A stretch of DNA of 64,000 bases, taken from NCBI GenBank assembly GCA_965204535.1, contig OZ241996.1, forward strand, positions 736,001-800,000. The letters are read 5' to 3'. Both the position numbers and the translations under genes were made by a program. Each line of letters begins with the position of its first letter. The first letter of the stretch is position 1. The DNA is from a bacterium (GTDB lineage Bacteria > UBA8248). Below the pieces are notes generated by a model. The model saw nothing but the letters and a program-made list of their open reading frames with translations, did no database searches and was not told the origin of the DNA. Shown piece after piece: positions 3,785-27,534 of the stretch.

Positions 3785-4225
3785 ATGGCATTCGGACTCA
3801 ACAGAGCGGAACTGATCGGGCGCCTCGGCGCCGACGTCACCGTCAACCATCTCGCGAGCGGCGGTCGCGTCGCGAATCTTTCCATCGCGACCGACGAGGG
3901 CTACGTCGACAAGCAGTCCGGCGAGCGGGTGGACAAGACCGAGTGGCACCGGGTCGTGACCTTCCAGCCCGGCCTGGTGGATATGTTCGAAAAGCACGCG
4001 AAGAAGGGCCGCCTGATCTACGTCGCGGGCAAGCTCCAGACCCGCCGCTGGAAGAAGGACGGGGAAGACTCGGACCGGTTCTCGACCGAGATCCTCATCG
4101 CGCCGGGCGGACGCGTGCAGTTCCTCGACAAGGTGAACGGGAACGGCAATGGCAACGGTAACGGCGCGCACGCCGAGACGGCGGCGGTGGCGGCAGGCGT
4201 AGCCGGGGACGACATCCCGTTCTAG
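3785..4225 (+). CDS. ssb: Single-stranded DNA-binding protein (mobile-element type)
   Basis: NRAELIGRLG, TEWHRVV and GKLQTRRW motifs; DDIPF tail. Confidence 0.95.
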   Translation: MAFGLNRAELIGRLGADVTVNHLASGGRVANLSIATDEGYVDKQSGERVDKTEWHRVVTFQPGLVDMFEKHAKKGRLIYVAGKLQTRRWKKDGEDSDRFSTEILIAPGGRVQFLDKVNGNGNGNGNGAHAETAAVAAGVAGDDIPF

Positions 4226-4233
4226 GCTCACCA

Positions 4234-4269
4234 GGGGTCGGCGCTTCGGCGTCGGCCCCTTTTCTTTTG
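4234..4269 (+). terminator. Intrinsic terminator after ssb
   Basis: GGGGTCGGCG-CTTCGG-CGTCGGCCCC stem-loop followed by a T-rich tract. Confidence 0.8.
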
Positions 4270-4369
4270 CTCCTTATCCAGAGAAGGTCCGCTCTGTCGG
4301 CTCTTCTCTAATCGGGACGAGCAAGTCAAGTTCCTCTGCCCTGGTTTTTCCGGATCTTTCCGCCTTGGC

Positions 4370-4555
4370 TTTAGACGATGCTCCATGGGGGTCTCGCTTC
4401 TCTACGTGATCGGCTCCCGGTCCGGGGCCGTCAACAGGATGGGGTCGGAGAACGAGGTGGAACAATCTCTCATACGCCCTCGCACCGTCACCGACGGAGC
4501 GGAACTGAGCCGACAGCGAACTCACCTCGTCCCTCGTCCCCACGGGAGCATCCTC
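4370..4555 (-). ncRNA. Predicted bridge/seek RNA of the IS110 element (ends approximate)
   Basis: Segments 4507-4516 and 4467-4473 match the flanking target; segments 4438-4445 and 4397-4404 match the element ends; stem CGAGGTG/CACCTCG encloses the target pair. Confidence 0.8.
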
Positions 4556-4611
4556 TGCCATAGCGGAAGCTACTGTAATTTTCGGATTCTTCTCCTTTTG
4601 GATTCCCGATG

Positions 4612-5652
4612 TCAGGAGGCTACGTCATCCACGCCGTCGCGTTTCCAGCGGAACTCACTGCCGTCCATCCATATGCGGTGCATAATGACGCCGAGCCGGC
4701 GGGCGAGCGCAACCTTCGCGCGCGCCTTGCCGCGACGCTTCGCCACACCCATCGCCCAGGCTTTCAGCCACGACCACCGCGTCGTGCGCCCGAGCAAGGC
4801 GTTGGCGGCTTCGTAGAGCGCCGCGCGCATCATCGCGTCGCCGCACTTGGAGATTCTTCCCGTTCGGTCGACCTCTCCGGATTGCCATTTGCGAGGCACA
4901 AGCCCGAAGTGCGCGCCCACCGAGCGCGAGCGCGCAAAACGCGACGGCACGTCGACGCTCGCCCGGAAGGTCAGCGCCGTCACCGGACCCACGCCGGGGA
5001 CCGTCATCAGGCGACGGCAGACCGGGTCGACGCGCACCGCCTCCAGCATCATCCTGTGCAGCCGGACGTATTCCGCCAGCAACGCAGAGCGAGCCCGCAG
5101 CATCGGCGCCACCAGGCGCGCCAACTCCGGGCGATCCGCGACCAGACCCCCTACCCGCGCCTCCAGCCCGCGGCGGGAGACCTTGCCCATCTTCAGTCCG
5201 AAGTTGCGCAACGTGCCCCGGATGTGGGCCTCGGCGTCGCACAACTGCTTCAGCATGAACCTGCGGTTGGCGAGGAGCATGCGTTTCTCCTGGCTCGACA
5301 CCGTCTTCACGTGCACCGGGCGAATCAGGTTCGCGCGAACCAGCTGGGCGATCCCGCGCGCGTCGTCGCGGTCGCTCTTGTTCACCGTGGCCGAGAGCAC
5401 CGCCTTCAACTGCCGCGTCTCGGCGCAAACCACCGGGAGCCCGGCCTCGGCCAGGCCGTCATGGAGCCACTGCGACAGCGGCCCCGCCTCGAGGCAGATG
5501 CGCTTCACGCCGAAGTCCAGCCCGGTGAAGAACGCCGCGAGGGCCGCGGGTTCGCTCGCGACCTTCGCCTCCCGGACGATCCCGCCGTCCACGTCCACCA
5601 CGCACACACTCGTCCACTCCAACGACACGTCGAGTCCTGCAAAGTAGTTCAT
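4612..5652 (-). CDS. IS110-family DEDD recombinase/transposase
   Basis: MNYFAGLDVS, CLEAG, KSDRDDA (DEDD), PGVG and QSGE serine motif; likely start at 5652 after an AGGAGGAG RBS. Confidence 0.95.
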   Translation of the reverse strand: MNYFAGLDVSLEWTSVCVVDVDGGIVREAKVASEPAALAAFFTGLDFGVKRICLEAGPLSQWLHDGLAEAGLPVVCAETRQLKAVLSATVNKSDRDDARGIAQLVRANLIRPVHVKTVSSQEKRMLLANRRFMLKQLCDAEAHIRGTLRNFGLKMGKVSRRGLEARVGGLVADRPELARLVAPMLRARSALLAEYVRLHRMMLEAVRVDPVCRRLMTVPGVGPVTALTFRASVDVPSRFARSRSVGAHFGLVPRKWQSGEVDRTGRISKCGDAMMRAALYEAANALLGRTTRWSWLKAWAMGVAKRRGKARAKVALARRLGVIMHRIWMDGSEFRWKRDGVDDVAS

Positions 5653-6058
5653 GGCTGCTCCTCCTGCGGGCGAGAGACACCGGAGCCATCCCGGCCTCGC
5701 CTCGATCATATGACAGAGGAACATCCGCTACACGCGGTAGTTCGAGGGCCAACCCGATTACCCCATCTCTCATCTACCGGGAACACCCGGTAAATCCTCC
5801 GGTCCGTGAACGATGAACCATGTTCACGGAAGTCGGCATGCGCCTGTAATCATTCCCATGCTCCAGATAGTGGCTCGGTCCACCCCCCGCTGCGGGAATT
5901 TCGGGCCGGAAAAGACGGCCCGAAATGACCCTTTCCGCAGCATGAGAGATTGTTTCCCGATGAGCTTCGCCTTCATCGTGAAACACCAAAGGCTCTTGTG
6001 TCCCGGTGGCGGTACTACCCTCTCTCTCTTAGCGTCCTCATTTTAGCACGAACGCCGA

Positions 6059-6195
6059 GCGAATAAAGGGTGGCCGCAGGCGGCCATCATTTGCCGGTGC
6101 CCCCCAAAAAACGTCGAGCGGCGAAAAACAGGAGCGCCGCTCTATGAACCGTGTTTTTCGGGAACCCCCCGGAAAATGACAAGCCCTTGATTCGC
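6059..6195 (+). promoter_or_regulatory. Long imperfect hairpin, candidate Frpo/ssi-like single-strand promoter
   Basis: Nested pairings GCGAATAAAGGG/CCCTTGATTCGC, TCATTTGCCGG/CCGGAAAATGA, AAAAAC/GTTTTT, GAGCGGCG/CGCCGCTC. Confidence 0.5.
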
Positions 6196-6292
6196 CCGCC
6201 TACGGGCATCGGTAACACCGCCCGATGCCCTTACGTGCTGAAAATGGGGCGCTAAGAAGCGCATCCGTTAACTCTCTACGAAGGAGAAAGGC

Positions 6293-7683: not shown

Positions 7684-9465
7684 GAGACTGTGAAAGTATT
7701 CCCACGATTCTGGTGGGTGACGCTGGCGAGCGATGCCCGGGTTGTCTGTACATGCTATCTTTACCGGTGAGTGAGATAACCACATAAAGGGTCACCACCA
7801 TGTCCGAGAGACGTTATCAGGAGGTGCAGTCCCGAAGCCAGATGATGCTGCTTCCGCCGTGTCTGGACGACTACGTGTCCGAGCACAATGCGGTGCGCGC
7901 GATCGATGCGTTCGTCGGCACGCTGGACCTGGAGGCGCTGGGGTTCGCGCATGCCGAAGCGAACTGCGGCGCCGGTCAGCCGGCTTTCGACCCGGCGCTG
8001 CTGCTGAAGCTGTATCTGTACGGCTACCAGCACCGGGTACGGAGTTCGCGCCGTCTCGAAGCGGAGACGCGGCGCAATCTGGAAGTGATCTGGCTGTGCC
8101 AGGGTGCGACGCCGAGCTACAAGACGATTGCGGATTTTCGCAAGAACAATGTGGCTGCGCTGCAGGAGGCCAACCGGGAGTTCGTGCTGCTGTGCCGCGA
8201 ACTCTCGCTGCTGGGCGGCAGCCGGGTGGCGGTCGACGGGACTTTTTTGAAGGCCGATGCGAACCTGGACAGCTTCCAAACCAAGCGGTCCCTGGCAAGG
8301 GACCTGAGGCGTTTGGAGAAGAGGATTGCGGCGTATCACCGGCAGTTGGACGAGGCGGATGCGCGCGGGGAGGAGTGTGGGGACGGTTCGGAGGATCCGG
8401 ACCTGCCGGTGAAGCTCAAGGCCTTGATCGAGAGGCAACAAAAGAAGAAGGCACTGCAAGAGCATTTGCAGGAAAGCGGAGAGCGTCAGGTATCGGGGGT
8501 CGATGCAGATGCTCGACTTCTGAGGAACGGCGATATAATGGTGGGCGGATACAACTGCCAGATCGCGGTGGACGACAAGCACAAGCTGATTGTCGCGGAG
8601 GATGTGGTGCAGGACGGCAATGACTCCGCTCAGTTGGAGCCGATGATGACGAAAGCCGGCGAAGCCATGGGCAGCGAACGCCTGGTCGGCCTGGCGGATT
8701 CGGGCTACTTCAACGGCGCACAGTTGAAGAGTTGCGAAGACAAGGGAATGGAGGTGTATGTTCCGATACCGAACCAGACGGCCCGCAAGGGCAAGGACGG
8801 ACGATTCGGCAGCGATGAATTCCGTTACGATGCGCAGGATGACACGTATGTCTGTCCGGCCGGAGAGCGTCTGGTTCGAGGCGGCACGACCACCGTCAGG
8901 GGCAGGCTGTATTACTTTTATCGCGGGACGGCGGCGGTTTGCCGGGACTGTTCGTTGTCGGGCCGATGCCTGACAAAGTCGAGATCGACGCGCAGGATAC
9001 AACGCTGGGAGCATGAGGACGTGGTGGACCGGCATCGCAAGAAGATGAACGCCCGTGTGCCATTGATGCGCGGGCGAAGCACACTCGTCGAACATCCATT
9101 CGGTACGATCAAGCGCTGGGCGGGGATGGATCATTTTGTGATGCGCGGACTCGGCAAATGCCGCGGCGAATTCAGCCTGATGACGCTGGGTTACAACTTC
9201 AAGCGGGTCATGCGTGTGCTGGGCGGAGCTGCATTTGTGGAGCATTGTCTGCAAAAACAGCGGTTGGGGACGAATGGCGTGTGAACTTGAAGCCGATTCT
9301 TCGAGGACTTGACCGCGACCCCGAGCTGACCGGCCGCCGAGACGTTTCTCTCCCGGCTCTGCGGTGTTGTTGCTCCCGAAGTTGAAGACAGTGTCCGGCC
9401 ATCGGGCTGCAAGCGTAAGCGAGCCCTGTTCCGGAGACTGTGAAATCCAATACTCTCACAGTCTC
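7684..9465 (+). mobile_element. IS1182-family element with 9-bp target duplication
   Basis: IRs GAGACTGTGAAAGTATT / AATACTCTCACAGTCTC; flanking CGCCGCCCG at 7675-7683 and 9466-9474. Confidence 0.9.
7800..9284 (+). CDS. IS1182-family DDE transposase
   Basis: LLKLYLYGY..SSRRLE, AVDGT, LADSGY, YVCPAG, VEHPFGTIK motifs. Confidence 0.95.
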   Translation: MSERRYQEVQSRSQMMLLPPCLDDYVSEHNAVRAIDAFVGTLDLEALGFAHAEANCGAGQPAFDPALLLKLYLYGYQHRVRSSRRLEAETRRNLEVIWLCQGATPSYKTIADFRKNNVAALQEANREFVLLCRELSLLGGSRVAVDGTFLKADANLDSFQTKRSLARDLRRLEKRIAAYHRQLDEADARGEECGDGSEDPDLPVKLKALIERQQKKKALQEHLQESGERQVSGVDADARLLRNGDIMVGGYNCQIAVDDKHKLIVAEDVVQDGNDSAQLEPMMTKAGEAMGSERLVGLADSGYFNGAQLKSCEDKGMEVYVPIPNQTARKGKDGRFGSDEFRYDAQDDTYVCPAGERLVRGGTTTVRGRLYYFYRGTAAVCRDCSLSGRCLTKSRSTRRIQRWEHEDVVDRHRKKMNARVPLMRGRSTLVEHPFGTIKRWAGMDHFVMRGLGKCRGEFSLMTLGYNFKRVMRVLGGAAFVEHCLQKQRLGTNGV

Positions 9466-12127: not shown

Positions 12128-14238
12128 TCACCGAAGTGCCAAAAAACAGCAGAACTTGACCTTTTCTCCTGACCCACAGGGGCACATTTCATAGGGTTTT
12201 AAGTTATTGGCTTTGCATAGATCATCCAGCAGAAATCGGCTTCGCTTTCGCCAGCTAGCCACTCGTTCTTCCCCGTTACGAAGGTCGCCCCATACGGCAG
12301 GTCGAAGACGCGGGCCAGAGGCTCGCGTCATAAACAGCCCTGAGAGTTGATCCCGAGCTTGTTCAAGAACGGACATCGAGAGCGCTTGACGCAGTCCGGC
12401 ATTCACCGCCGTAATTACCTGCCCCCCTCGTTTGTCGCAAGGCGCTCTGCTACCTCGCGACGAAAACTCTTCCCACTGGCCGATTCCCTAAAGTGCAATA
12501 CTCCACGTAGCAGTTCTGGCTGCTCCTCGATCAAAGCACCCAGATCCGAATTAAACCGACCGGTCAAGACGTAGCTTGCCGCGTCGTCGGCCCACTCCGT
12601 CCCGGCAGAAGCGGAGAAAGCTACGCTCGCCAGCTTTTCACACCCCAAGAGTAGCCGCGTAGCGCTGGCGTTGGTTTGTTGACATATAACTCCCTTGCCT
12701 ACTACTCCAGCCAAGCGCAATACGGGAAAGACCAACCATCGTGGGACGGCGCCTCGCGGTGTTCCCCCGCTAATGCCCAAGAGTCGACGAATGGAGGGAT
12801 GCATCATGGCACTGCGAGTTCTGTCCGACACTTGATCTGTCTTTAGCGCATGCGTCAGATCGACTGAAGACGACTCAAGCATGTCCATCTGTCTTTCCGC
12901 TATTTCTTCTTTGCCCGGTATGGGCGTCAGATGCCGACGAATTCTCTCGGCGACCGTCATCTCCTCGAACGACTCTGTGGAACTAGCCCTAGAGCCCAAC
13001 CTGATTTCCTTTATATGGCCTACCAGAGCGCCCGGTTCCGGAAAGACCACGACGGGTTCTGGCGGTGGGATGACCAGCCGTATCGCCCCGGCTTCGACGA
13101 ACTCCCAAAACCAAGCTGAACCCAGCAGGTTGTGCAACTTTCCCAAGTGGCCGATCGACAGGCAAATCACATCGAAACAGACCAAACCGACGACGATATC
13201 GTGCAATGCCGAGTAGTCGTGAAGAACCACTTCGCCATCTACATAGCCTTCACCGATGATAAGTTCCCGCGTTCCCGAACTGTTCTCCGCGGTCACCGTT
13301 TGCGACGTGGTGAACTTACCCGGAGGTAGTAACTCTCCAATGAAGCAGATGCTCTCACCGTTGCGTTCCTCAATCCCGGTATCCCCCGGAGTTGATGTGG
13401 TCGGACCTGGCTGAGGCCTGATGTCCGCAACGGCTTCAAGTGTCAACAATGCGCTTCGATGGTCCGGCGGGTCGGCGACATAACTGATACGTCTCACACC
13501 TAGAGGAATTTCGGACGATCCTTCCGGAGTGACGATGAAATGCGGACCCGTTCCAAATAGCGGATGGGTTGTCGAACTGTGTTGAAGGGCGGAAATCACG
13601 TGTTGGTCTTGGAAACCATAGCCTAGAAACAGAACCGTTGAATTGGAGAGGACCGAGTGAAGAGAATTCAGGAACGGGATGTCAATTTGAATATCGTCGT
13701 AGTCCTGTTTGGAGAACACCATGGTCTCGACCGCGCTGATCGAACCATGCAGCTTGCATATGAACGCCCTGCCTTCGGCTAGGAGTTGCCGCATACGTTC
13801 GGCGTCGGACCGTTGAACGGTCTCCCGTCCGATTAGGTGATGCTCGAGGGATTCGTCAACGTTGGTGGTCACGATGCCCGTCGGCTTGACCTGCTCCAAT
13901 GCATGCAGCATTCGTCTATAAACAGGGGTTGGTTGCCGATACGAAAAAGCGTCAAGGAGACAAGAGAAATAGAGCTCTGAATCGCATGTCCGCATCTCCT
14001 GAAAAAGCTTTGGGTATGCTTCCGCCGCCAATAGAGCCGAGGTAGTGTTCTTGGAGTAGGTGCTCACCTCTCTTGTAAACCGCCTGTGCATCTGTTCGGC
14101 GAGCTCGCGCCACAATGGGTAGCCCATCCACGCACTAGTGCCAGCACCCAGCCAGACAACTAGAGGACCGCCGCGACTCCGAATCGCCGAATCGAGGGCG
14201 TTTAGGGCATTGAACGTCTCTTGATCTTCGCAGAACAT
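12128..14238 (-). CDS. SIR2-like protein with C-terminal SEC-C motif, split by a frameshift in a G6 run
   Basis: GAGTS, TTNVD, KLHGS, LFLGYGFQD motifs; ORF stops at 12415 and the downstream frame ends in CPCGSGEKVKFCC; one extra G at 12422-12427 joins them. Confidence 0.8.
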
Positions 14239-14860
14239 GGTTAATTCCTTGGACTATCTGTAGGCGCTTGCGATCATCGGGTTTTGCTCACACGATCTCC
14301 CCTCAATAATTTTATCACTAGATATGAGAGTTCTGGAACCATGGATGAAGGGCGAAGCGGAGCGAAACCCGGAGGCCATGGTTCCTATGTTTCAGGTCCT
14401 AATAAGTTATGCTGCCTGATCCTGTTGTAGATATGCTGTTTTCGCTCCACGAAGAGCCATAGCCCAAAGCCGTACATTGCGTCCACGCAGTCAGGATACC
14501 CGCCGGGGAGAATAGCGGGCCCGCCAGCGGGCCAGGACCGAGCCTGAGCGCTTCCTGGGGTCCCTAGTCTCGACTACGGCGAGAAATTCAGTGGTTCCCA
14601 CGTTCGGACTGTACCAGCAACGAAGTGCATTGGCAGCGGAGGTGTATTTCGGTTCGATTGCAAGATGGAAACTGGATATCAGCAATAAGGGGGCCGTGCA
14701 TAGCTTCTATAAATTTCGGGAGACGTAAACCGTGCAAATTCGAAAAATACTAGGTCAAAAGCGCTTCAACAATACCCTTAGCTACAGCCATAGCACAAGA
14801 ATCCTCTTGAAATTGAGAAAAAGAAGCTGGGGATCTATTCATTCTTGAGCGATATATTTT

Positions 14861-16203
14861 AGGTCAAGTCCTGTAGATGCTGGATAATTTCTTAGGGCGC
14901 ATATCGGCCGAGGGCTGCCTGATGTCGTTTTCCGCCTCGTAGTTCTGGTCCAGTTCCCTTCTGAGGGCGTCCATCTGGCGGCGCTCGAAGCCGGTGACCC
15001 TGAGCGCCCGCCATCGCTCCGAAGCCCGGATCATGGCGGCGAACATGAGCTTGAGCACCGGCTTTTCCCCGAAGGCGTTGGGAATGATCTTCATCCGCCT
15101 CCGCTCCTCGACGAACAGGCGCTCGAGCAGGTTCGTGGTGCGCACGGCGCGGCGGTGGTTGACGGGCGCCCGCAGATGCGCGATGCAGGCTTCGAAGTCG
15201 TCGCGGAAGCACGCCACGGCGCCGGGCAGTTCGGACTCGTAGTCCCTGACTATCCCTTCGGCCAGTTCCCGGGCGATGGCGCGCGAGGTTCCTCATCCGG
15301 TGCGCCAGGCAGCGTTGCCGCTCCGAGCGCGGGAAGCAGGTCTCGATCGCCTTGACGATGCCGGGCGCTCCGTCGCTGACCACCAGCAAAGGGTCGCCCA
15401 GGCCGCGGGCGCGCATGTCGTGGAAGAACGCGCTCACCGTCTCGGCGTCTTCTTTCGAACCCGCCATCAGGTGCAGGAGAACCTTCGCGCCGTTCGCCGT
15501 GAATCCCCAGGCCGCCAGAACCGGCTCGCGCCTGCTCCCCGGGCGGATACGTTCCGCAATCCCGTCGATGAACAGATAGACGACCTCGTGCTCGCCCAGG
15601 TCCCTTGACGCGAACTCCTGGTAGTCTTCCCAGAGGCGTTCGCCGAGTTCGGAGACCGCCGTGCGCGAGAGCAGAAGACGACCGCTCTCGTCGGTGAAGA
15701 CGTCTTCGATGTCGCGCACCGACAGGCCGCGCGCCAGAAGCTCCACCGCCAGCCCCTCGAGCGCCTCGGTGCGCCCCTTGAGGCCCTCGCGTATCTCGGA
15801 GCGGAACCCTTCCTCGCGCCCGGCAATCTGAGGCGCCGCGTACTCGATGAACCCTTCGGCCGTCTTCAGACGACCCGGGCGGTGACCGTTGCGGTAGCCC
15901 TGGCCGGGCTTCGCGCCGTGTTCGTAGTACTCCCGGCCCAAAGCGTCGTGGCTCTCCGCCTCCAGCGCCTCTTCCACGATGAGCCGCGTGGCGAGCTTCA
16001 CCAGATCGGCTCGCGCATCGGGACTCGACAGACGGCCTTCGATCAAGTCGGACAGGGATTGGCGGGTATGTATCGATGCCTGTATTCTCTTCTTCATGGG
16101 GTTGCCTCCTCGGTGGGACGCCGGCGCTCACCGGCACGGGTTCATGGTTCCTCCGCCGAGGATGCACCCCTCCAAAGTTTCCAGCAAGTTTAGGACTTAA
16201 CCC
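14861..16203 (-). mobile_element. IS256-family element with frameshifted transposase (14864-16096)
   Basis: IRs GGTCAAGTCCTGTAGATGCTGGA vs GGTTAAGTCCTAAACTTGCTGGA; YRNG, LFIDG, VVSDG, QRCLAH and RTTNLLER motifs split over two frames near 15280. Confidence 0.85.
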
Positions 16204-16635
16204 TCTTTCTCCCCTTCTTCAAGATGAATCGTTTGCATCGCTTTTATTCGGCTCTTGCTATTCATCCCTTGCTTTCAGCCCTAACTTTTGCTGCCGCTTT
16301 AACTCTTGCTATCGCTTGGGATGTTAATAGCTTGTGCTAAACGGAATTGGGAGTCCCGTCTTTAACCACACCTGTAAAGCTTTCAAGCAACGTTAGTAGC
16401 GTTGCAAAGGTAGAAATCCCCGCCTCTTGCCAGAGACTATAGTAATATGAAGAATTCTTCGGAGCTACTAAGAGGTACTTCTAATCAGTTTATATTACTC
16501 CAGTGTCGGTTAAATCAATACGCGGCCTACAGAGTTGGCTACAAAGATTTTCTTCTTTATTGCTGGAGATAGTATAGGTCTTTACATAAAATTCTGTAAG
16601 TTTTTTGAAGAGTTTTATCAAGAAGGATTCAAAAC

Positions 16636-17322
16636 ATGAAACTAGGAACAAATGCAATTCAGTTGTTTTTACAATTTTTTGGTTGGTTTATTTCCACCGA
16701 TCTTATTTGGAATTTTTCAGGGTTTAAAACCAAGCTTAAACTTGCCATACCTCTACTTGAACCTTTCTTTCCAGCCATATCTGTTGCGTTGATTTTTACA
16801 CTTATTGCAATACATTATGGCAAAATTCTCTCGTTGTTTTTTGCTTCAGTAAGATTCCATTCATATTATGAAAAACTACTCGAATGGAGCGATCATGTTA
16901 ACGGAAGAAAACCAAGGGCAGAATCATCTTATTCTTTGTCATACGATGCCTCAAAACAAATAATAGACGTATGTCAAAGATTCAATATCCCTTACCCGAC
17001 ACCCATAGAAAAAGTGGATTTTAAAGCAATGTCTTTTTATGGTGATGAAAAAGCGGATGAGGAAAGATTAGAGATATGGGGTATCTTTGCTGACGATATT
17101 GCACGTTGCGCCAGCAACAAGAATTTGCATAAAGCACAAGAAATTTTAATGAATGAAGATGAGAGAGCAAAAGCAGCTTTGACTAGAAAAAAGCGACTTA
17201 ATCACCTTACTATATGTATCGTTTTGTTAACCATTTTGTTAGTCATTCTGATCAGTATGATCATTAAAAAATGGGATGTTTGGGTATATTTGTTTAATCT
17301 AACATTTAAGGCGGCAAGGTAA
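16636..17322 (+). CDS. Low-GC hypothetical membrane protein between two IS256 copies
   Basis: 228-aa AT-rich ORF with N- and C-terminal TM segments. Confidence 0.7.
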   Translation: MKLGTNAIQLFLQFFGWFISTDLIWNFSGFKTKLKLAIPLLEPFFPAISVALIFTLIAIHYGKILSLFFASVRFHSYYEKLLEWSDHVNGRKPRAESSYSLSYDASKQIIDVCQRFNIPYPTPIEKVDFKAMSFYGDEKADEERLEIWGIFADDIARCASNKNLHKAQEILMNEDERAKAALTRKKRLNHLTICIVLLTILLVILISMIIKKWDVWVYLFNLTFKAAR

Positions 17323-17328
17323 TTTCCT

Positions 17329-18741
17329 GAGTTACTGTCAAATGTTGTGTATGGCCGTCCTGAATCCAGCGACCTTCCTGCCCGTTTCTATTTCGTTCAC
17401 TCCATCGACGAACCTCACGTCGGCGATTACGTCGGCCAGATGACGGAAGCCGCGTAGCCGGCGCCATCGCTTCTCGGCGCTCATGGCGAGCTGATGCACG
17501 AGGCACAGCGCCGTCTTCTCACTCAAGCAGTTCCTGGTCTTCGCCGTTCGCAAGCGAATGGTGGCGAAGGTCGACTCGATGGGGTTCGTCGTCCGTAGAT
17601 GCCCCCAGTGCGCCGCCGGGAAGTCGTAGAAGGCGAGCAACTCCTCCCGGTCTCTCGCCAAGCATTCGGCCGCCTTGGGATACTTCGCCTCCCAGGTGGC
17701 ACAGAAGCGTTCGAACGCCTTGTGCGCATTCATCCGGGTGTCGGCCCGCCAAATCTCGTGCAGCATCGACTTCGCTTCGCCCTGAACGCATTTGGGCAGC
17801 TTGTTGAGCACGTTCGCCGTCTTGTGAACCCAGCAGCGCTGCGCCCGCGTCTCGGGATACACCTCGGCCAGAGCCGACCAGAACCCTAATCCCCCGTTGC
17901 CCACGGCGAGCTTCGCCGCCTTTACGCCCCGGTCCCGCAGGCTCAACAGAACCGCTTTCCAACTCTCCTTCGATTCCCGGAACCCCGCCTCCAAGGCCAG
18001 GAAGTGCTTGCGGCCACGCACGTCGCACCCCACCACCACCAAAAGACAGCGCCGCTCCTCGCCACGCACGTTCACGTAGATGCCGTCCGCCCACAGATAC
18101 GCGAACTCCTCGCCATGCCATTCCCGCTCACGCCACTCGGCGTACTCACGCTCCCAGCCGCTCTTGAGCCGCGCGATCGTCGCCGGAGACAAACCCCCCA
18201 CCGATTCGCCAAACAGCGCCGTGAGCGCCTCGCCGAAGTCGTTCGTCGATATCCCCTTCAGGTACAGCCACGGAATTACCGCCTCCACACGCCTCGCCTT
18301 CTTCAAATACGGCGGCAGCAACTCCGAGCGGAAACACCGCCCCGCCCCGGACCTGTCCCGCGTCCGCGGAACACGAACCCGCACCGGCCCGATTCCCGTC
18401 AAAATCTCCCGTGACACCAAATAGCTGTTGCGGTAGCCCTGGCCGGGCTTCGCTCCATGCTCGTAGTACTCCCCGCCCAGCGCGTCGTGGCTCTCCGCCT
18501 CGAGCGCTTCCTCCACGATGAGTCGCGTGGCCAGCTCCACCAGGTCGCCCCCGCATCCGATGTCGACAGACGACCTTCGATCAGGGCGGACAGGGTCTGA
18601 CGTGTATGCTCCGATGCCTGTATTCTCTTCTGCATAGGAGTGCCTCCTCGGTTGGATGCCGACGCTTACCGGCACGGTTTTGTGATGCCTCTGCCGAGGA
18701 TGCACCCCTCCAATGTTTCCAGCAAGTTTAGGATTTTACCG
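17329..18741 (-). mobile_element. Chimeric IS256-family element, frameshifted near its 5' end
   Basis: 18430-18741 resembles 15890-16203; the rest is a different IS256 transposase (LWADG, QRCWVH, RTTNPIES); the usual VSDG Asp reads VGNG. Confidence 0.8.
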
Positions 18742-18920
18742 GCAACGCCGTTGGAATTCACCAAACGCCTCTATACGGGCGTCAAAACAGGATTTGAGCA
18801 AGAATACCCCGCCTTCTTCAATTCAGCACATACACGAGAACTGAACGTATGTTCTTGACACTTATCCCTTTAGCTTGGTAGCAATGCCTCTTGATGAAAT
18901 TTCCAAGCGGGAGGGTTTTA

Positions 18921-19406
18921 ATGCGTTATCTATTTATTGTTTTATGTCTGATTCTTCTTCCCACCCCTGCATTTCCAAATGAGCAATTGGATATAGAAGC
19001 AGTCGAGAAACATTTGCAGCTTGAAAAAGAAGCTCTTCAAATTTACAAGCGAGCAAAAAAACGCGCAGAAAATGCGGTTAAAAAATCTTCACTAGGACGC
19101 GAAATTTCACGGCTTCTTGAGGTGCCGAATGATGAAACAAAAAAAATCACGAAAGGCAAACCTGAGCTGAATTTTGACAAATTACGCAAATCACTACGTA
19201 ATATTATGAAAGTTCATGGGGTCGAAAAAAAATTTGCTAAATTTGTTCGTATAATGACATATAAATTCTTTGGCGATGAAATCAGGGAACTAGGTGAAAA
19301 AAAACGAAACGCATTATTGCGTATTTATGAACAACTACGGCTCTCAGATATCGAGCAGGAACTGTCATATCTTGAGGCTGAAATGGAGTTTTTAAAAGCT
19401 CGGTGA
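18921..19406 (+). CDS. Hypothetical exported helical protein
   Basis: Signal-peptide-like MRYLFIVLCLILLPTPAFP; GGAGG RBS; low GC. Confidence 0.65.
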   Translation: MRYLFIVLCLILLPTPAFPNEQLDIEAVEKHLQLEKEALQIYKRAKKRAENAVKKSSLGREISRLLEVPNDETKKITKGKPELNFDKLRKSLRNIMKVHGVEKKFAKFVRIMTYKFFGDEIRELGEKKRNALLRIYEQLRLSDIEQELSYLEAEMEFLKAR

Positions 19407-19503
19407 TATGACACATAGGAGATGCGCTACTCCCGGGCAAGCCATGAACCCGGTACCGTACTCGACCAAGGCGGATGCGTTCAGGGTCAAGTCCTACTTG
19501 ACC

Positions 19504-19775
19504 TTACGTAGCCGCCGCAAAGCTCGGAGGACTGTCGAGGTCAGTAGCAAGACTGTCCGCAACCCGCTCGGCCGCGGCCTTCACCGAGTCCCGCGCAAGG
19601 TGTGCGTAGCGGGCAGTGGTCTGGACTTTGCGACGGCCGAGGAGCTTGCCGATCATCGGCAGGCTTTCGCCGACGGAGAGCGCCCGCGAGGCGTAGCTGT
19701 GCCGCAGATCGTAAATGCGCACGTCTTCCAGTCCCGCCTTTTTGTGGACCACCCCCACGTCGCGTTCAGGTTGCT
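19504..19775 (-). pseudogene. Tyrosine integrase C-terminal remnant
   Basis: IYDLRHSYASRAL..LLGR..TTARYAHL, homologous to the 27535-29864 integrases, with both catalytic-motif His altered. Confidence 0.85.
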
Positions 19776-19932
19776 CAGACGGGCGCCGGGCGCGCATCGT
19801 GGAGTTGAAAACCATGTTTCGCCAAGTCGATGCCGATCATGGGGACCTGTTCCATCTCGTTCCTCCCGCAGGGCGGCGAACTATGTCAACTCGCCCAGTT
19901 TGATGGCACCGGGAAGTCGCGTCCACCCCATC
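19775..19932 (-). pseudogene. IS110/IS1111 left end plus transposase N-terminal stub
   Basis: Minus frame from 19855 reads MEQVPMIGIDLAKHGFQLH; the end reads GATGGGGTGGACGC. Confidence 0.75.
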
Positions 19933-20386
19933 GGATACCGCCAGGGCCTCCCTGGGATACGCACGAGTTATAATGAATCCGCTTTCTGCTTGATTACGGG
20001 TTGTGAAAGGCGCATTCCATCAAAAATGGACATATTATTTAATATCAACAAGATAAATGGATTTTTCCGTTGCCGGAAACAGCTTGAAAAATCTAATTTA
20101 TCGGCTCCCTATAATATCTAACAAACCAACAAGCACACCGTCCATGCCTCAAGAATAGGAACGACTGCGGGGGTGCGGGAGACTAGAAAACCGTTACAGC
20201 CCTAGAAAGGAAGAGCAGGTCATTGCAGGCCTCAAGTACTCCTGTGTCGTTTGGCGGTAGGTTGTCGATGATGCTCGATACCTCGCAGTTAATTGTGCCG
20301 GAATCATGCATGAGGTGCTCCAATATGGCATAGTTCTGTAAGGCTACCTGTAAGCCTTTGGATGCCTACGGACTATATTTGCTGCA

Positions 20387-20438
20387 CAGTGAATTTTCAT
20401 ATTGCAGTGAATATATGCTATAAATGCGATATTTACTG
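20387..20438 (+). promoter_or_regulatory. Candidate promoter/operator of the AbiE-like operon
   Basis: CAGTGAAT twice; inverted pair CAGTGAATAT (20405-20414) / ATATTTACTG (20429-20438) in an AT-rich stretch. Confidence 0.45.
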
Positions 20439-20455
20439 TACAGAAAAAAGGCAGA

Positions 20456-21556
20456 TTGCTGATGCTTGCCGAAAAGGTTGTGGAAAAACAGTTGCTTGAT
20501 CAGTTCCTGGAAGCCCTGCAGGGGCTGCCCGGGGTGCAAGCGGAGTTGGGTTCACTTATACAGCCAAGTGGTCCGGATCGAGAGTATGACGCCCGGGTTG
20601 CTCTTAGGGCGGGCGGGAAGGCTGCCACTCTGATGATAGTAGTGAAGAAGACCCTCTATCCTCGTGATGTGCGACAGATGCTTTGGCAGTTCCAGGCTTT
20701 TGCACGTAGATGGCCGCAATCGGCGGAAGCACGGCAAACGTTGTTCTTCTTAGTGGCCCAATCAATTTCACCTGGAGCCAAAGACCTGCTGAGGGACGAG
20801 CGGGTTGGCTACTATGACAGCGGGGGCAGCCTGTTTCTCCCTGCTCACAACATCTACGTTTACGTGGACAAGCCGCTCTCGAAGACCTTGTCGAAATCCA
20901 TTCGCTCCTTGTTTTCGGGTCGACGTGCGCAGGTGCTGCACGCGCTCCTGATGCGGCATGGCGAGTGGTTCGGAGTCAAGGAGGTCGCGGCGCAGGCGCG
21001 GGTCTCGCCCGCGACCGCCTCGCAGGTGCTGACTGAACTTGAGAAATACGATTGGGTAGTGTCGCGAGGGCAGGGACCGACCAAGGAACGCGATCTTCGA
21101 GAGCCTGGCGCCTTGCTGAATGAATGGGCCAGGCAACTGGCGGTGATGCCGCCACTTGCAATGCGGCGTTACTTTGTGCCCTCGGTGCGTGCGGAGGGGC
21201 TGGTTCAGAAGTTCGCCGAGGTCTGTGCCGCCCGAAAGGCTGAATACGCGCTCACTCACGAGGCGGCAGGGCAACGGTACGCCCCCTTTCTATCGACTTT
21301 CTCCCAAGTGCGTAGCCGGATGATGGCTGGCGCCACCGCAGATGGAGTCCTGGGCGCACTCGATGCCCACATCGTAGACCAGGGTGCAAACCTCATGATC
21401 ATCGAAGTTAAGACGTCCGGCGATTTTTTGTTTCGAGAGCTGGTGGATGGAACTTGGCTGGCGAGTCCTATACAAGTCTACCTCGACCTGATTCGCGGTG
21501 AGGGCCGCGCCAAAGAAATGGCGAAGCACCTTCGCCAGGAAAGGCTCGGATTCTAG
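20456..21556 (+). CDS. AbiEi-like antitoxin / transcriptional regulator (type IV TA)
   Basis: Central wHTH (VKEVAAQARVSPATASQVL) and C-terminal ASPIQVYLDL..GRAKE motif. Confidence 0.75.
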   Translation: MLMLAEKVVEKQLLDQFLEALQGLPGVQAELGSLIQPSGPDREYDARVALRAGGKAATLMIVVKKTLYPRDVRQMLWQFQAFARRWPQSAEARQTLFFLVAQSISPGAKDLLRDERVGYYDSGGSLFLPAHNIYVYVDKPLSKTLSKSIRSLFSGRRAQVLHALLMRHGEWFGVKEVAAQARVSPATASQVLTELEKYDWVVSRGQGPTKERDLREPGALLNEWARQLAVMPPLAMRRYFVPSVRAEGLVQKFAEVCAARKAEYALTHEAAGQRYAPFLSTFSQVRSRMMAGATADGVLGALDAHIVDQGANLMIIEVKTSGDFLFRELVDGTWLASPIQVYLDLIRGEGRAKEMAKHLRQERLGF

Positions 21557-22452
21557 TGGCGAAGCCTACGACACTGCACGGCTACACCAATCAGCACACA
21601 GTCGATTGCGAGCGCGTTCTCGTTACCCTGCTGCGCGGATTAGGCCCCTGGAAAGAGTCGGTAATTCTGGTTGGCGGCTTGACGCCGAGATATCTGGTGG
21701 CGGCCAGACCACCGGCAGTGCCGGCGCATGCAGGGACGCTCGACTTGGATGTCGTCATCGACCTGCAAATTCTGGCCGAAACCGAGGCGTATAACACGCT
21801 CGAGGACAACCTGCGAAGAATGGCGTTCGAGCCATTCAAGAACGACAGGGGCCAGAGGTCCTCATGGCGGTGGCAGACCCGCACCGAACATGGCGCGCTG
21901 ATTGAGTTGGAGCTGCTCGCCGACGCGCCTGAGATCGCCGGTGGCAGGGTTCAGCCGCTGCCTACGGAAGGGACCATCTCCGCGCTCAACATTCCGCACT
22001 CGTCCATTGTCTTCGATCTCCACCGGGTCACGGAGATTCAGGCAAAGCTCCTTAACAGCGAAGCCATCGCCGTCGAAAAAGTCAAGCACGCAAATCTGGT
22101 GAGTTTCACTTGCCTGAAGGCGTTCGCCTTCGATCAGCGCTTCGAGCGCAAGGACGCGCATGACCTGGTCTATTGCATCGAGCACGCGCCCGAGGGTATC
22201 GACAACGTTGCGGAGATGTTCCGCAACACTTTGGAAGGCAGCCACGGCGCAGTGATCCGGGACTCTCTGGCAATTCTTCGCAATCGCTTCGCACAAGACG
22301 ACGAAGTCGAGGGCTATCGCAAGGACGGTCCCGTGGAGGTGGCCCGCTTCGAACTGGGTGAGGGTGACGAAGCCGACCTGCGCGAAGCTCGCATGCTGCG
22401 CCAACGCGAAGTCAGCAATGTGATCGAGCAGCTCCTGGAACGTATCGGTTAG
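21556..22452 (+). CDS. AbiEii-like nucleotidyltransferase toxin
   Basis: LVGG, GTLDLD and K..A...R.ERKDAHD motifs; start overlaps the upstream stop (TAGTG). Confidence 0.75.
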   Translation: MAKPTTLHGYTNQHTVDCERVLVTLLRGLGPWKESVILVGGLTPRYLVAARPPAVPAHAGTLDLDVVIDLQILAETEAYNTLEDNLRRMAFEPFKNDRGQRSSWRWQTRTEHGALIELELLADAPEIAGGRVQPLPTEGTISALNIPHSSIVFDLHRVTEIQAKLLNSEAIAVEKVKHANLVSFTCLKAFAFDQRFERKDAHDLVYCIEHAPEGIDNVAEMFRNTLEGSHGAVIRDSLAILRNRFAQDDEVEGYRKDGPVEVARFELGEGDEADLREARMLRQREVSNVIEQLLERIG

Positions 22453-22950
22453 GAGGCGGTATGACGCTTAAGGCTGTTTTCACGATACCATCACGGCCCG
22501 CCCGAACGTTTACACCGACATAACCCCGCAGGTCTACGCTGGAGTTTGAATTCCTCCGTTTCCGTTTTGATTACTTCCTCCAGAAAGCAAATCCCGAACG
22601 AAGTTTCCAAAAACAAATACCCGCAACAGTTTCAACAAACTACAAGGATTCCCCGCTCGTCGTAATTCCCCCACTGCCTGAAACCACGCGAGGCGCGGGC
22701 GGGACTGCCCGGGATGTTAAAGCCGGGCGCTTTCAGTGCGATGAAGGCGATCCTAGTTGTCCTGCTGCAATAGCAGCGGAAATCAAACAGGTAAGTTGAC
22801 GGGCAATTACCGACACGGCTACCGCCAAGATGGCAAATACGGCAGTAACAGAAATTGAGCTATCGCAAACTGTCCCAGTCCCACCCGCTTTTGCGAATGC
22901 AGAAAGAACAAGGTGATTGGAGTGAAGTTTTCGGGACTCAGGAGAAAGTA

Positions 22951-23076
22951 ATGGCACAATTTATTACGTCAATACGGATAAAAAACTTCCGCTCTGTTGT
23001 CGAGCAGACTTTTTCTCTTAGCGACAAAACTCTTTCGATATTCGTAGGTCGTAATGATGTTAGAAAAACGAGCTAA
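22951..23076 (+). pseudogene. N-terminal stub of an ABC/AAA_15-type ATPase (OLD/GajA/PtuA-like start)
   Basis: ITSIRIKNFRSV...IFVGRNDVRKTS*, a degenerate Walker A followed by a stop. Confidence 0.6.
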
Positions 23077-23170
23077 GCGCTTAACTTGGAGAGGTAGAGT
23101 CACAAGAGACTTTCGCCCTTGATCCGAATAAAAATACAAAGTGCAATTTACCAAAAATCAAAACTCATAT

Positions 23171-25618
23171 TCAGTCACCTGCCGTACGATTCTTTTCAAC
23201 TCTGCGTAAGCTATCAATGAAGATTTCATTTTTCGTATTGCTTTCCAGTAGCCCCTTCAACGTAGCCCAATATTCGGTTGATACCGAGCAAGCAATCTTC
23301 GAACAAATTTCAAATGCCATCGTCTCTTCCAATTTCTGCCATTTCTCACTCATAATTATCTGAGTTCTGGAAGAATTCAGATCCAAGTCCATGCTTCCAC
23401 AAACATCTACCACTATCAACATTGGGAATGGCCAATTCAGTTTTACCTGATTTTTTTGCATTCTCCACGATTCTGGAAATAGCGTTGTAGGGACTTCAAT
23501 TCCGTGCAACGAAAGCCAAGATTTCGATTTCCAATGACTACTATATAAATTCGACTGCTCTATTATTCCTCCTTCATCTATAGTGATTGATGTCGTAGAC
23601 TCCTTTATTTCATTACTGACCATCCGCAAACTCTTGTCTAAAGAATAATCTTCACCTTCAATCACAATAGACTTGGACGTCATTTCAATACTAGTGGTCG
23701 GCGAGCCATGAGACTCTAATATCGCTACAATGACGGAGCCAACAAATCCTTTTTCTTGATTATCAAAATCTATGTTAAATACTCTAATATTATCATGCTC
23801 ATCCCATGTATGTTCTCTTAGTTGTTCAGCCTTTATTTCCTTAAACGATTTTTCATCTCTTATTTTTTCTTGAGATTCTGTTTCTATTACTATCTTGAAT
23901 GGCGGGTTTGGCAATACGTTTTCAACGGACTTAATGAACTCGTCTTCGCTCAAATTATCCCACGGATTTACGTTTTTTCTGAGGAATAGTTTGGTTGATG
24001 TTCCGGGTATTGTTCGTTGCCCCGGCTTTATCCAAAATATGCTTTCTTGGCCTTCAATAGTAATATTTATCGCGTCACTCGAATCGTGAGGTCCATAAAC
24101 TCTTCGGGTATCTACTACCAATGTATCAGCCACCATAAAGCAAGACAAAATCCCTATGCCAAATCGAGATATTGGCATAAACTTCGCCTTTGCTATTGAC
24201 TTTAGTTCATAAAAATCAGGAGACATATAAAATGACGATCCGACTTTTGAATAGTATGCGTCGATAATATGCTGATCCATTCCAGTCCCATTATCAATTA
24301 TCTCAAGTACGTCTCCATCGGTTTCAGTTGAATATTTTATGTGTATCTCTGGTTCGTATAAATTGCCCCAACTCTTTTCCATAGCGCTTCGCAGCAAACA
24401 AGCGTCGATCGAATTCTGCAATAACTCTCTAAGAGGAACTTCTGGGTCACCATATAATTTCGTGCCCATTAATAAATCTATAACTTGATTTTTACTCAAG
24501 TTGAACTGTGCTTTTTTATAGAGATAAAGCGGCTGACCATTAATACCTTTCTTTGTTTCAATTTTTGATCTATCCACCTTAAAGGGAATACTAGTTGTAT
24601 GTTCTTTTCCTTGGTTTCTATCGAAATCGTTTATTGATGAAATAATATTATTGCAGGCGCTTAACTCCCGATCGATAATGTCGCAAAAATCGTGAATTGA
24701 TGCTTCTATAGCAGGATGTATGCACTTGGCATGAAATTGAATAGATTCCTCACTGATAGACCATGCTTCAATAGCTCTGTGTTTATTCCATTCGTTGATC
24801 GATATCGGATTCCTTACAAACAGATGCGAGAATAAGACTTCCGGTGTTCTCTTTGCGTCGAAATCAAGAATATCTGCAAGCCTCAATATCACGGCGATTA
24901 GTTGCAAATTAGCATATATACCGTCCCCACAAAGATAGTTTCTGTCGAGTTCCAAAAGTGAGAGAGCGTCATTACTGTGACTGAAACAAATTTCTGCAAA
25001 ATCGACAGTTAAATCGACGTCTCTATACCTTATTTTTTCATTCCAATGTTTTTCAATAATGTCCCTTGCTCGTTCGGCATGTGTAGCTCTAATGTAATCG
25101 GAAACAATGTAATTTTTCAGCAAATCCGCTTCGCTATTTTTCCCCTGCGCGATGTACGATTCAATCTGCGAGTTAAGCTCCGGCTTTGACAAATAGAATC
25201 TTTGAAATTTACTGAACTCATCGTTTTCTTCATCTGATAGCGATGGAGATATGTCCCAAACCTTTCTCCATGAAGTTACATCCTTTTCTTTAGCCGCCAT
25301 TCCAATATCATGAAAAAATGCACTAAGTATCAACAACATCAATTCCGGGACTGAGAGTTCTTTAATTTTGCCCGGAGAAAGTAGCTTCTCCATTAACTTT
25401 AAAACACGGAATAGATGGTCGCCATCATGGAGAGTAAATTCTCCCATGTGCATTAGAATCGTCTTGGTTTTCTGGTATGCAAAAGACGTTGCTTCATCAA
25501 CGAGAGATAAGACCTGATTGCCAGGAGAATTGCCCTCACATTTTTCCCTTAATGCGCAGTAAATAGCACTCTTGTGTAATCGCTCTTGTGTTTCCGCTTT
25601 CCAGTCATCGCCACTCAT
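23171..25618 (-). CDS. HD-CE-like domain fused to an Hsp90-like GHKL ATPase
   Basis: FTLHDGDH, FFHDIGM and LRLADILD (HD); LYGD..LRELLQNSIDAC, DNGTGM and SRFGIG (GHKL); GGAGG RBS favours the start at 25618. Confidence 0.85.
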   Translation of the reverse strand: MSGDDWKAETQERLHKSAIYCALREKCEGNSPGNQVLSLVDEATSFAYQKTKTILMHMGEFTLHDGDHLFRVLKLMEKLLSPGKIKELSVPELMLLILSAFFHDIGMAAKEKDVTSWRKVWDISPSLSDEENDEFSKFQRFYLSKPELNSQIESYIAQGKNSEADLLKNYIVSDYIRATHAERARDIIEKHWNEKIRYRDVDLTVDFAEICFSHSNDALSLLELDRNYLCGDGIYANLQLIAVILRLADILDFDAKRTPEVLFSHLFVRNPISINEWNKHRAIEAWSISEESIQFHAKCIHPAIEASIHDFCDIIDRELSACNNIISSINDFDRNQGKEHTTSIPFKVDRSKIETKKGINGQPLYLYKKAQFNLSKNQVIDLLMGTKLYGDPEVPLRELLQNSIDACLLRSAMEKSWGNLYEPEIHIKYSTETDGDVLEIIDNGTGMDQHIIDAYYSKVGSSFYMSPDFYELKSIAKAKFMPISRFGIGILSCFMVADTLVVDTRRVYGPHDSSDAINITIEGQESIFWIKPGQRTIPGTSTKLFLRKNVNPWDNLSEDEFIKSVENVLPNPPFKIVIETESQEKIRDEKSFKEIKAEQLREHTWDEHDNIRVFNIDFDNQEKGFVGSVIVAILESHGSPTTSIEMTSKSIVIEGEDYSLDKSLRMVSNEIKESTTSITIDEGGIIEQSNLYSSHWKSKSWLSLHGIEVPTTLFPESWRMQKNQVKLNWPFPMLIVVDVCGSMDLDLNSSRTQIIMSEKWQKLEETMAFEICSKIACSVSTEYWATLKGLLESNTKNEIFIDSLRRVEKNRTAGD

Positions 25619-26431
25619 GATGCCCCATTTCCTCCTTAATGTATCTAATTGTAACTGCACATCGTTTTTGTTCGCCGAGCAAACACCGATATGCAACCAT
25701 GCGTAGGGGTGGAGCCTTTCCTTTTGGTATATCAGAGTAGCACAGGCGGCGGCTGAGGGTGATACTTTTCGGACAGGACGTAGCTTGACCAGAGAACGGT
25801 GCCACCCCCGGTCAAAGAATCCCTTGTGGATCCGGTGCGCGGGTATGCAATCTGTGCACGGACGCATGATGCCCCTTAGGCGGCCTGCGTCGGCGCGACC
25901 TAGTTATTGGGATGAGGTGATGAGCCGCCACCTTCCTGGCCCCAAATACGGCCCAACGCTATGTAGGTGGCGGCTTCACTATGCAGGGCGACGACTCCGA
26001 CATGTTGGCGGAGTGGGTTAAGGCTGACTGGCCGCTGCAGGAGGCAGATGTGGTGACATTGTTCACCGCTGACTTCCACTGTTTATGGCACCGATAACTG
26101 ACTGGTGATGTCGACGGAGTGGCAGGCCATCCATATCATTCCGTACAACTTCTTTATCCATAACCCCGCGCTGAAGATCCGGTCGAAGTAAGGAGACGGG
26201 CGAGGGGCGCCGCTCCGGAGAGGTGGGTCGGGCGAGAATCGAACTCGCGCAAACAAATTTGCAGATTCGGGTGACTGTCCGCTTGGCTATCGACCACGGT
26301 GCTTTTCGCATTTTGAACAGCATCCTGTTCAGCCTTAGGTCTAGATACGGAGTCTGGGATATGGGGTGGCTCGTGGAGTTCATTGAGGAGCGGGACGCGG
26401 TTGATGAGGTACCTTATGGCATTGTTCCTAC

Positions 26432-27271
26432 TCAACCTGACCAATCGTAGCGAAGGCGACGCAAAAAAGTTCGAGCGGTCACGAGAGCAACGTGCAGGCG
26501 GAAAGTGCTGTGCTCTTCGTCAGATAGCCCAGGATGTGGCCCCTCTTTGTGAAGCATCTTAAAAAGGCCGTTGATGTAGTTTTTTCCGTCACTCGTCCAT
26601 TCATTTCGTGCGGATGATAGAAAATCGAGCTTTTCTAATAGAGCTCGACGGGACTCGGAAGTCTGGCGTTTTTGTGCTTCTTCCGGGCTAATCGAATGTG
26701 CGATTCCATCGAACAGGCTCTCAATAAATGTCCGAATCTGGCTGTTGGCCGCTGCCCAATCGCCACGAGTATGGGCCTTGACCGCTTGATCCAGATGTCC
26801 CAACGAAATGGTAAAATTCTTTTCTTTGAGAAGTTTTCGTATTTCATCGTCCGCTTCGGGTAATTCCAACTCGGAATCAGCCGGTAGCGCGGACAATAAT
26901 ATCGGACGATCTTCGTCTTGATCGAAAGAAATCACGTAACCGTCACGAGCAAGACCGCGCTTAAAGTCTGTCCTTAAATTTTTATGATAATGAGCAAGCG
27001 GTGGTCTCATAAATGTGAGTGCCTCTCGGACAACTGCTTCACCAAGTGTCATGGAACCGTCAAATGTTTCGATGCTAAAGTTCGGGTTGTTTACAAGAAT
27101 TCTAGCTAAAAGAGCACATTTCTTTTTGACGCTGACCTTGGTGCTTTCGGTGATGTGATTCTCAAGGTTCAATCGTATAATCATTTGATCAAAATCGGCT
27201 TGGGTATGCCCTTCCAAGAGCTCGGTAGCCGCAACTAAAGTTGGTCTCGTAAATTTCATTTCATACCCCAT
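26432..27271 (-). CDS. Hypothetical protein, possible abortive-infection (Abi_C/HEPN-like) C-terminus
   Basis: Low GC; HLDQA...AANSQIRTFIESL...LHKEGPHPG helical pattern; defence-like neighbourhood. Confidence 0.5.
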   Translation of the reverse strand: MGYEMKFTRPTLVAATELLEGHTQADFDQMIIRLNLENHITESTKVSVKKKCALLARILVNNPNFSIETFDGSMTLGEAVVREALTFMRPPLAHYHKNLRTDFKRGLARDGYVISFDQDEDRPILLSALPADSELELPEADDEIRKLLKEKNFTISLGHLDQAVKAHTRGDWAAANSQIRTFIESLFDGIAHSISPEEAQKRQTSESRRALLEKLDFLSSARNEWTSDGKNYINGLFKMLHKEGPHPGLSDEEHSTFRLHVALVTARTFLRRLRYDWSG

Positions 27272-27534
27272 AAAATATTTCTATAGTATCAGTCTTTCTT
27301 TCTCCAATCCCTGTTTTCTCCTTCAATTCCCTCATTCTGTTAAGTTGGGGCGTATTTACAAAATGACGAGCATCATTCATGCCTCAATGTTGCGATATAT
27401 AATCTTTTTCACTGATCACATATCCAGCTACAATCTCAATTCCAAGTCTGCAGTCTTTACGCGTTCATACACCACAGATCCACGGTCCTTCTGCCTTGAA
27501 GCAGGCACGTCCAGTTCCTTCTTGTCGCCAGTCT

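Follow-up and report, generated by a model that had tools for sequence, protein, structure and literature searches.

An IS110-family element behind ssb

The window, meaning the whole stretch of 64,000 nucleotides that was analysed (contig OZ241996.1, positions 736,001 to 800,000, assembly GCA_965204535.1), holds at 4303..5768 on its minus strand an IS110-family insertion sequence that we place in the IS1111 group and the ISAzs32 clade. Its ends were taken from homologues and from empty sites, giving a length of 1466 bp with both AG cores counted and 1464 bp with one. The recombinase gene (4612..5652, minus strand; 346 aa), with a ribosome site AGGAGG at 5665-5660 on the same strand, was characterised by profile searches and by alignment to IS621 and ISCro4. 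Its product scored 46 bits against PF01548 (cut-off 29), 78.8 bits against PF02371 (cut-off 21.3) and 231.6 bits against the NCBIfam IS110 RNA-guided transposase model NF033542 (cut-off 140). An earlier note on this DNA had called the DEDD and Ser motifs intact, and the alignment bears this out: D8, E55, D94, D97 and the catalytic Ser258 all fall on catalytic residues of IS621, and the Ser-Gly motif is present. The element further shows the family's traits of a specific target, a single copy of the core in the empty site and absence of terminal inverted repeats.

To the left of the target lies an ssb gene with its terminator (3785..4260, plus strand; PF00436; terminator at 4233-4260), and this copy of the element sits between ssb and a DUF4326 gene. 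The two genes are separated by about 600 bp of conserved, hairpin-rich non-coding DNA (4226-4302 and 5769-6292), a stretch that recurs at about ten places in the source genome and in related genomes and is possibly a transfer or replication signal of a repeated mobile island; ssb-like matches in the source genome number 13. The island also carries a YAcAr/SLOG gene, a NikA-like gene, other transposases, SIR2-like and HD-CE genes and two tyrosine integrases. Within the window, a transposase with DUF772 and DDE_Tnp_1_6 domains, presumably IS1182-like, adjoins the YAcAr/SLOG gene at 7800-9284; a SIR2-like gene (12415-14238) and an HD-CE/HSP90-like gene (23171-25867) are both of defence type; and the cargo region (12415-29948) includes two Mutator-family transposases and two tandem tyrosine integrases (27535-29948).

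Four copies of the element, 100% identical to one another, were found in the source genome (G000), along with a truncated 5' copy and an orphan 3' region. The truncated copy (L161, G000:C2:480683-480889) is identical to the element at 202 of 206 positions, and its site matches four of the five left-guide bases; its assignment to the L010 variant was dropped, as it is nearer this element (202 versus 194 of 206). The orphan (L163, G000:C2:374338-374538) belongs to a sister variant, being identical at 173 of 201 positions to L001 and at 157 to this element; it keeps the guides and right flank of that variant, has no recombinase match nearby and has lost the donor hairpin. Within the same genus, 5 of 22 genomes carry full-length copies that are 85-95% identical at the DNA level, and the closest relatives come from MAGs labelled Nitrospinota, Nitrospinaceae, Deltaproteobacteria or simply 'bacterium'.

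Core, ends and landing sites

The earlier note had read a repeated GAG core, a 14-nt target and a 17-nt donor junction (TAGAGAA-GAG-ATGGGGT). Because the empty paralogues proved longer than that target, we fixed the element ends from relatives instead. Briefly, the sample comprised 61 genomic loci and the top 80 of 272 metagenomic ones (141 in total), of which 55, or 56 counting the window's element, had both ends with sufficient flank; the end motifs served as search anchors, and the bases outside the element did not. Left ends start with AGATGGGGTA (47 loci), AGATGGGATA (8) or AGACGGGGTA (1), and the right ends finish in GAGAAG, with outside bases taking all four letters; invariance spans only AGATGGGG to TAGAGAAG. 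A perfect sub-terminal repeat of 8-12 bp recurs in the same register in 54 of the 56 loci; here its two 8-bp halves are TAATCGGG on the left (5753..5760, minus strand) and CCCGATTA on the right (4309..4316, minus strand).

Empty sites led to the same register. Of 37 genomes scanned with a gapped pattern allowing 4-14 nt, 4 yielded empty copies of this site, 15 in all, every one of which holds 13 nt where the earlier register predicts 11, and a second pattern recovered seven empty sites of a sister variant in 2 of 5 genomes, all composed of left flank, a single AG and right flank; the AG core thus fits 22 of 22 pattern-matched empty sites. As read from these ends and sites, the core is the dinucleotide AG, with its left copy at 5767..5768 (minus strand; CT on the plus strand) and its right copy at 4303..4304 (minus strand). 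The target is the 16-nt ATGAG-AG-AGCCGACAG, with halves outside the element at 5769..5773 (left, ATGAG) and 4294..4302 (right), both on the minus strand, and the donor junction is TAGAGA-AG-ATGGGGT.

To the original register we give next to no credence. It does fit the empty paralogue of one of the four copies, but it is found in only one of the 56 loci, this one, fails at all 15 and all 7 empty sites, would shift a -10-like hexamer out of its spacing (below) and would break both donor guides within the core; we reject registers with a GAG or a GA core, which are at odds with the ends of homologues and with the empty sites. The repeated GAG is a coincidence at this locus, since the target is AG-rich. 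The core, target and donor sequences given earlier are shifted by 2 nt, the target being 2 nt too short, so that the assay substrate proposed with them would be wrong. In three distant homologues (L110, L112 and L128), a second copy of the last 5 nt of the right end precedes the target half, which would reflect imprecise insertion or re-insertion.

The exceptional copy is the fourth (L158, G000:C2:559198-560663, with C2:26337 listed alongside). It lies just behind a promoter-like stretch, in a tandem repeat unrelated to the sites of the other copies, and opens a 7-bp array of 8 units (16 in the empty paralogue). That paralogue is 2 nt shorter than insertion at an AG core predicts, which we count against the AG register; an additional AG in the invaded allele, or else slippage of the guides, would account for it. 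A second allele at this site was not seen in the run contigs.

Occupancy in the source genome follows the guides described in the next section. With the four elements removed, only 3 of 476,506 AG-centred sites are free of non-wobble guide mismatches, and all three are occupied; these are paralogues of the conserved non-coding stretch downstream of ssb in the repeated mobile island. Eight other paralogous module sites (seven distinct) each carry at least one mismatch, and all are empty, and the site of the fourth copy has one guide mismatch and one wobble. Two of the eight lie in a 6-kb exact duplicate; G000:C1:194656 and C2:2967710 are identical over at least 6 kb across both contigs, near the end of C2, and this is likely an assembly duplicate. 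We take conserved non-coding DNA behind ssb to be the natural target, one that gives many harmless landing sites. The element is a further example of its kind exploiting repeats that belong to other mobile DNA. The L009 variant lands in this intergenic stretch too, about 45 bp off and on the opposite strand.

The flanks of the occupied paralogues are only 83-90% alike, differing by 10-17% right up to the junctions, around an element that is identical throughout, and this points to separate, recent insertions. That the element is no longer mobile, its identical copies having arisen by gene conversion, island duplication or assembly collapse, is a reading we consider very improbable. It could draw on the assembly, which contains at least one exact 6-kb duplicate and is rated 5.3% contaminated, and on what the sequencing runs show: a circle junction with joined ends was not seen among the contigs of seven runs (X1-X6, X21), contigs being a form of data that drops rare forms, and the RNA run X21, for which presence of the host is not established, gave almost no cover over the RNA region. 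Against it stand the divergence of the flanks, the placement of one copy in an unrelated tandem repeat, the tracking of guide match by occupancy, the intact gene and catalytic residues, and the recovery of the element body with 0-1 differing letters in contigs of runs X1, X2 and X3. Judged from sequence, the bridge-RNA element is real, intact and probably recently mobile, and the earlier view of it as probably active gains indirect support from the four identical copies in unlike flanks.

Guides and the predicted bridge RNA

The 3' non-coding region of the element contains, as the earlier note had laid out, four segments that match its target and its own ends, all on the minus strand. The first target guide (4507..4516) is the complement of the 9-nt right target half plus the core G, with the A of the core mismatched at 4506; the second (4467..4473) reads the same as the 5-nt left target half together with the AG core. 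The first donor guide (4438..4445) is the complement of the left element end plus the core G, and the second (4397..4404) reproduces the final 8 nt of the right end, counting the core. When 4311-4611 was dinucleotide-shuffled 20,000 times, none of the four guide words arose in 18,512 shuffles, one in 1,469 and two in 19; three or four arose in 0 of 20,000.

We then compared guides with flanks across relatives in 53 of the 56 loci, anchored on the stem of the target arm (L082, L109 and L123 were dropped). The left guide matches its own flank at four or more of five positions in 46 loci and the right guide at five or more of seven (best of three offsets) in 45; both match in 41, one alone in 9 and neither in 3. 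Sliding the left guide by 1-2 nt reduced the matches to 0-4 of 53. With one locus taken per guide family (11 families), own flanks scored 3.92 against 1.51 of 5 for shuffled pairings with the left guide and 6.24 against 3.03 of 7 with the right, values reached by 0 of 20,000 shuffles for either guide, and stricter anchoring on 47 of the 56 loci gave the same outcome. By this sequence comparison, the target guides for both strands covary with the target: they change with the flanks, rather than the same loop being kept whatever the flank, which was the outcome that the earlier note had set against its own reading. Together with the protein families and catalytic residues, this covariation upholds its central claim, that the element is a complete one of the IS110/IS1111 kind and that the guides of its bridge RNA are legible in the sequence.

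Recombinases that are 94-97% identical carry five different guide pairs, and among the close relatives the flanks fit the guides for this element, L001-L006, L009 and L010 and partly for L015. Neither guide fits the flanks of L007, L008 and L102, two of which are among the closest relatives, and this we count against the reading, as we do the nine loci where a single guide matches. Such misfits may represent half-matched insertions like those reported for IS621 in the available text of 10.64898/2026.08.31.748434, or short-read assemblies joining the wrong flanks. In a subgroup of 12 loci (L018, L033, L035, L045, L068, L069, L073, L078, L079, L101, L103 and L109), the first target guide differs in length by as much as 2-3 nt, and the motif in the flank moves along with it, some at offsets of 1 nt.

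The guides fall within a predicted bridge/seek RNA of about 200 nt (4370..4570, minus strand) comprising a 5' hairpin, an outer stem, a multi-branch loop and a target-binding arm. Folding of the whole 3' region beats shuffled sequences (z -4.1; z -2.0 for 4375-4560 alone). The CGAGGTG/CACCTCG stem that was said to close the target pair is present both in the sequence and in the folds. Of the further claim that each guide pair flanks a small hairpin, the donor part stands insofar as those guides sit on either side of one; the donor pair lies, however, in a multi-branch loop closed by the long outer stem and not in a simple internal loop. Of 78 homologous regions having a right end, 51 could be anchored and were distinct; single-sequence folds predict the outer stem in every one of these 51 and the target-arm stem in 41. 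A consensus fold of 20 rows shows two-sided changes in 7 of 23 pairs; it is without the outer stem, which the alignment slices cut and the single-sequence folds recover. The target guides are predicted to be slightly more open than the rest (0.44 and 0.45 versus 0.36), a gain small enough to be counted against the reading, and the second donor guide is the most open part of the fold (0.74). Among Rfam families, none was found for the predicted RNA, the two matches returned being at chance level and far below the gathering score.

A candidate handshake between RNA and donor is found in the target loop, where AU (4465..4466, minus strand) equals the first two element bases after the left core. 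The G-A-T columns of this loop are invariant in 20 of 20 rows, the stem-anchored set reads AGAT in 49 and TGAT in 4 of 53, and in all 53 anchored RNAs this AU is able to pair with the AT just after the left core. The corresponding donor-loop handshake does not covary with the target, which we count against the reading: its first position agrees in 10 of 53 loci and is mismatched in this element, although in most loci pairing with the donor is avoided. Target and donor have the base adjoining the core in common in this copy, also counted against; a shared base at this position is treated as unfavourable and filtered out in IS621/IS622 design, according to the available text of 10.1101/2025.05.14.653916.

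Promoter-like sequences accompany the RNA. An outward-facing -35-like hexamer, TTGACT, lies at 4324..4329 (minus strand), and joining of the ends would place a -10-like hexamer, GAAGAT, 17 nt downstream. In 51 of 56 loci TTGACN and a GAAGAT created solely by end joining stand 17 or 18 nt apart, as expected of a junction promoter, which we predict here. A weak internal promoter-like site just upstream of the RNA (4586..4615, minus strand; 9 of 12 consensus matches) was the single one found where 0.2 +/- 0.5 were expected, and it is not visibly kept in all homologues.

The donor guides leave room for a different reading, in which, as in a seekRNA-type variant, the target arm alone guides, the ends are recognised mainly by protein at the sub-terminal repeats, and the donor-matching segments serve otherwise or only in circle formation. 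For ISEc11, the accessible text of PMC11187229 describes RNAs of 82-96 nt with target matches only as the main species and as sufficient. Covariation, moreover, is silent on the use of the donor guides, which are nearly constant here because the element ends are. Yet both donor matches are kept in place across 20 rows of 66% mean identity, both extend into the core, the second occupies the most open part of the fold, and the portions of PMC11208160 available describe just such a multi-loop donor arrangement for IS1111 elements. We judge the protein-read alternative unlikely and favour guidance by both arms of the RNA.

Kinship with known elements and a proposed mechanism

The nearest described element is ISAzs32 (Azospirillum sp. 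B510 plasmid pAB510b, locus L186), with a recombinase 57% identical over 341 aa. The two share the left end AGATGGGG, the right end GAGAAG, 8-bp sub-terminal repeats at equal spacing, the RNA scaffold, the guide order and the AGAT core-plus-handshake, and differ in that ISAzs32 has other target guides and another target, a longer 3' region and a different host group. ISAzs32 is one of six elements drawn as bridge RNAs in Fig. 6d as well as Extended Data Fig. 10c of PMC11208160 (Durrant et al. 2024), as given by the figure legend; the same paper, in its available text, places a predicted bridge RNA in the right end for 93% of IS1111 elements and notes multi-loop donor guides. Both the bridge-RNA system and the ISAzs32 clade are already published, and the element is a clean natural example of that system, not a new one.

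Placement in the IS1111 group depends on how the group is drawn. The ISfinder-type traits cited in PMC11208160 are present, namely sub-terminal repeats within 7-17 bp (8 bp here) and a long, RNA-bearing right end beside a short left end (309 versus 116 nt). IS1111 in the narrow sense of PMC11187229, as its available text defines it, usually has 11-13-bp repeats, beyond which the termini extend by 7 (or 6) and 3 bp; this element, like ISAzs32, falls outside it, with 8-bp repeats and extensions of 8 and 4 with one core. Our assignment, made on sequence features, takes the end features and the 57% identity to ISAzs32 as standing in for a curated tree. As far as the open portions of PMC11187229 describe them, ISEc11, ISPa11, ISKpn4 and ISPst6 share with this element a 3' non-coding region, sub-terminal repeats, no net duplication, a top-strand match before a bottom-strand match (here 4516-4507 before 4473-4467), a predicted junction promoter and natural reprogramming among relatives. 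Here 8+4 nt separate the repeats from the ends, making 12 nt over the junction, whereas the 11-13-bp repeats of the ISEc11 type are set 7+3. Those portions report the top-before-bottom order, the reprogramming and the junction promoters for IS1111 elements, assign no donor guides to the seekRNA elements, find the short RNA sufficient for ISEc11 and caution that IS1111 mechanics may differ from those of IS110; the last two points weigh against the reading favoured here.

With IS621 and ISCro4/IS622 (PDB 8wt6, 9t56) the element shares the DEDD and Ser active site, although sequence similarity is only distant (E 1e-13). Unlike these two, it has its RNA 3' of the gene, a multi-branch donor loop, 8-bp sub-terminal repeats, target halves of 9+5 as against 7+5, and a donor in inverted orientation with respect to the gene. 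On the opposite strand, its core reads CT and its guides run left target, right target, left donor, right donor. For IS621, the text available of PMC11208158 gives a CT core, a target-loop A81/U82 and a donor A6/T7; core, guide order and the AU target-loop handshake with donor AT are thus the same as in IS621. This agreement may account for the 'reversed order' that has been described for RNAs of the IS1111 type. By this analogy we infer an IS621 reaction with the donor inverted relative to the gene.

The proposed mechanism is modelled on what the available texts of PMC11208160, PMC11208158 and PMC11187229 describe. The guides of the 3' non-coding region likely steer the recombinase to the landing site and to the element's own ends, the predicted bridge RNA would bring target and circular donor together within a single recombinase complex, and strand exchange would take place at the 2-bp core. 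We are fairly confident of the reading as a whole, that is, of an intact IS110-family (IS1111-group) element with 3' non-coding guides matching its target and its own joined ends, likely to move as IS621 does.

With less assurance, we lean towards a stronger form, in which this IS1111-type clade would carry out precisely the reaction of IS621, with CT core, guide order and AU handshake unchanged and the donor lying the other way round with respect to the gene, the 'reversed order' being a change of strand only. The lineage would then be a natural reprogramming series in which near-identical recombinases carry at least five guide pairs, two of them attacking one island intergenic region from opposite strands, with a 16-nt target longer than that of IS621. 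We did not find the inverted-strand reading stated in a search of open literature text, which included the available parts of PMC13626964, PMC13604230 and 10.1101/2024.01.24.577089 and left subscription papers outside; it may already be implicit in Extended Data Fig. 10c of PMC11208160.

The element would allow a test of whether IS1111-type elements use a donor loop and handshake as IS621 does, a question left open in the available text of PMC11187229. The branch to which it belongs, marked by a 3' RNA and a multi-branch donor loop, is not represented by a solved structure among the PDB matches, and the element adds a probably recently mobile, fully readable bridge recombinase whose corrected target and donor make it fit for an ordinary recombination assay.
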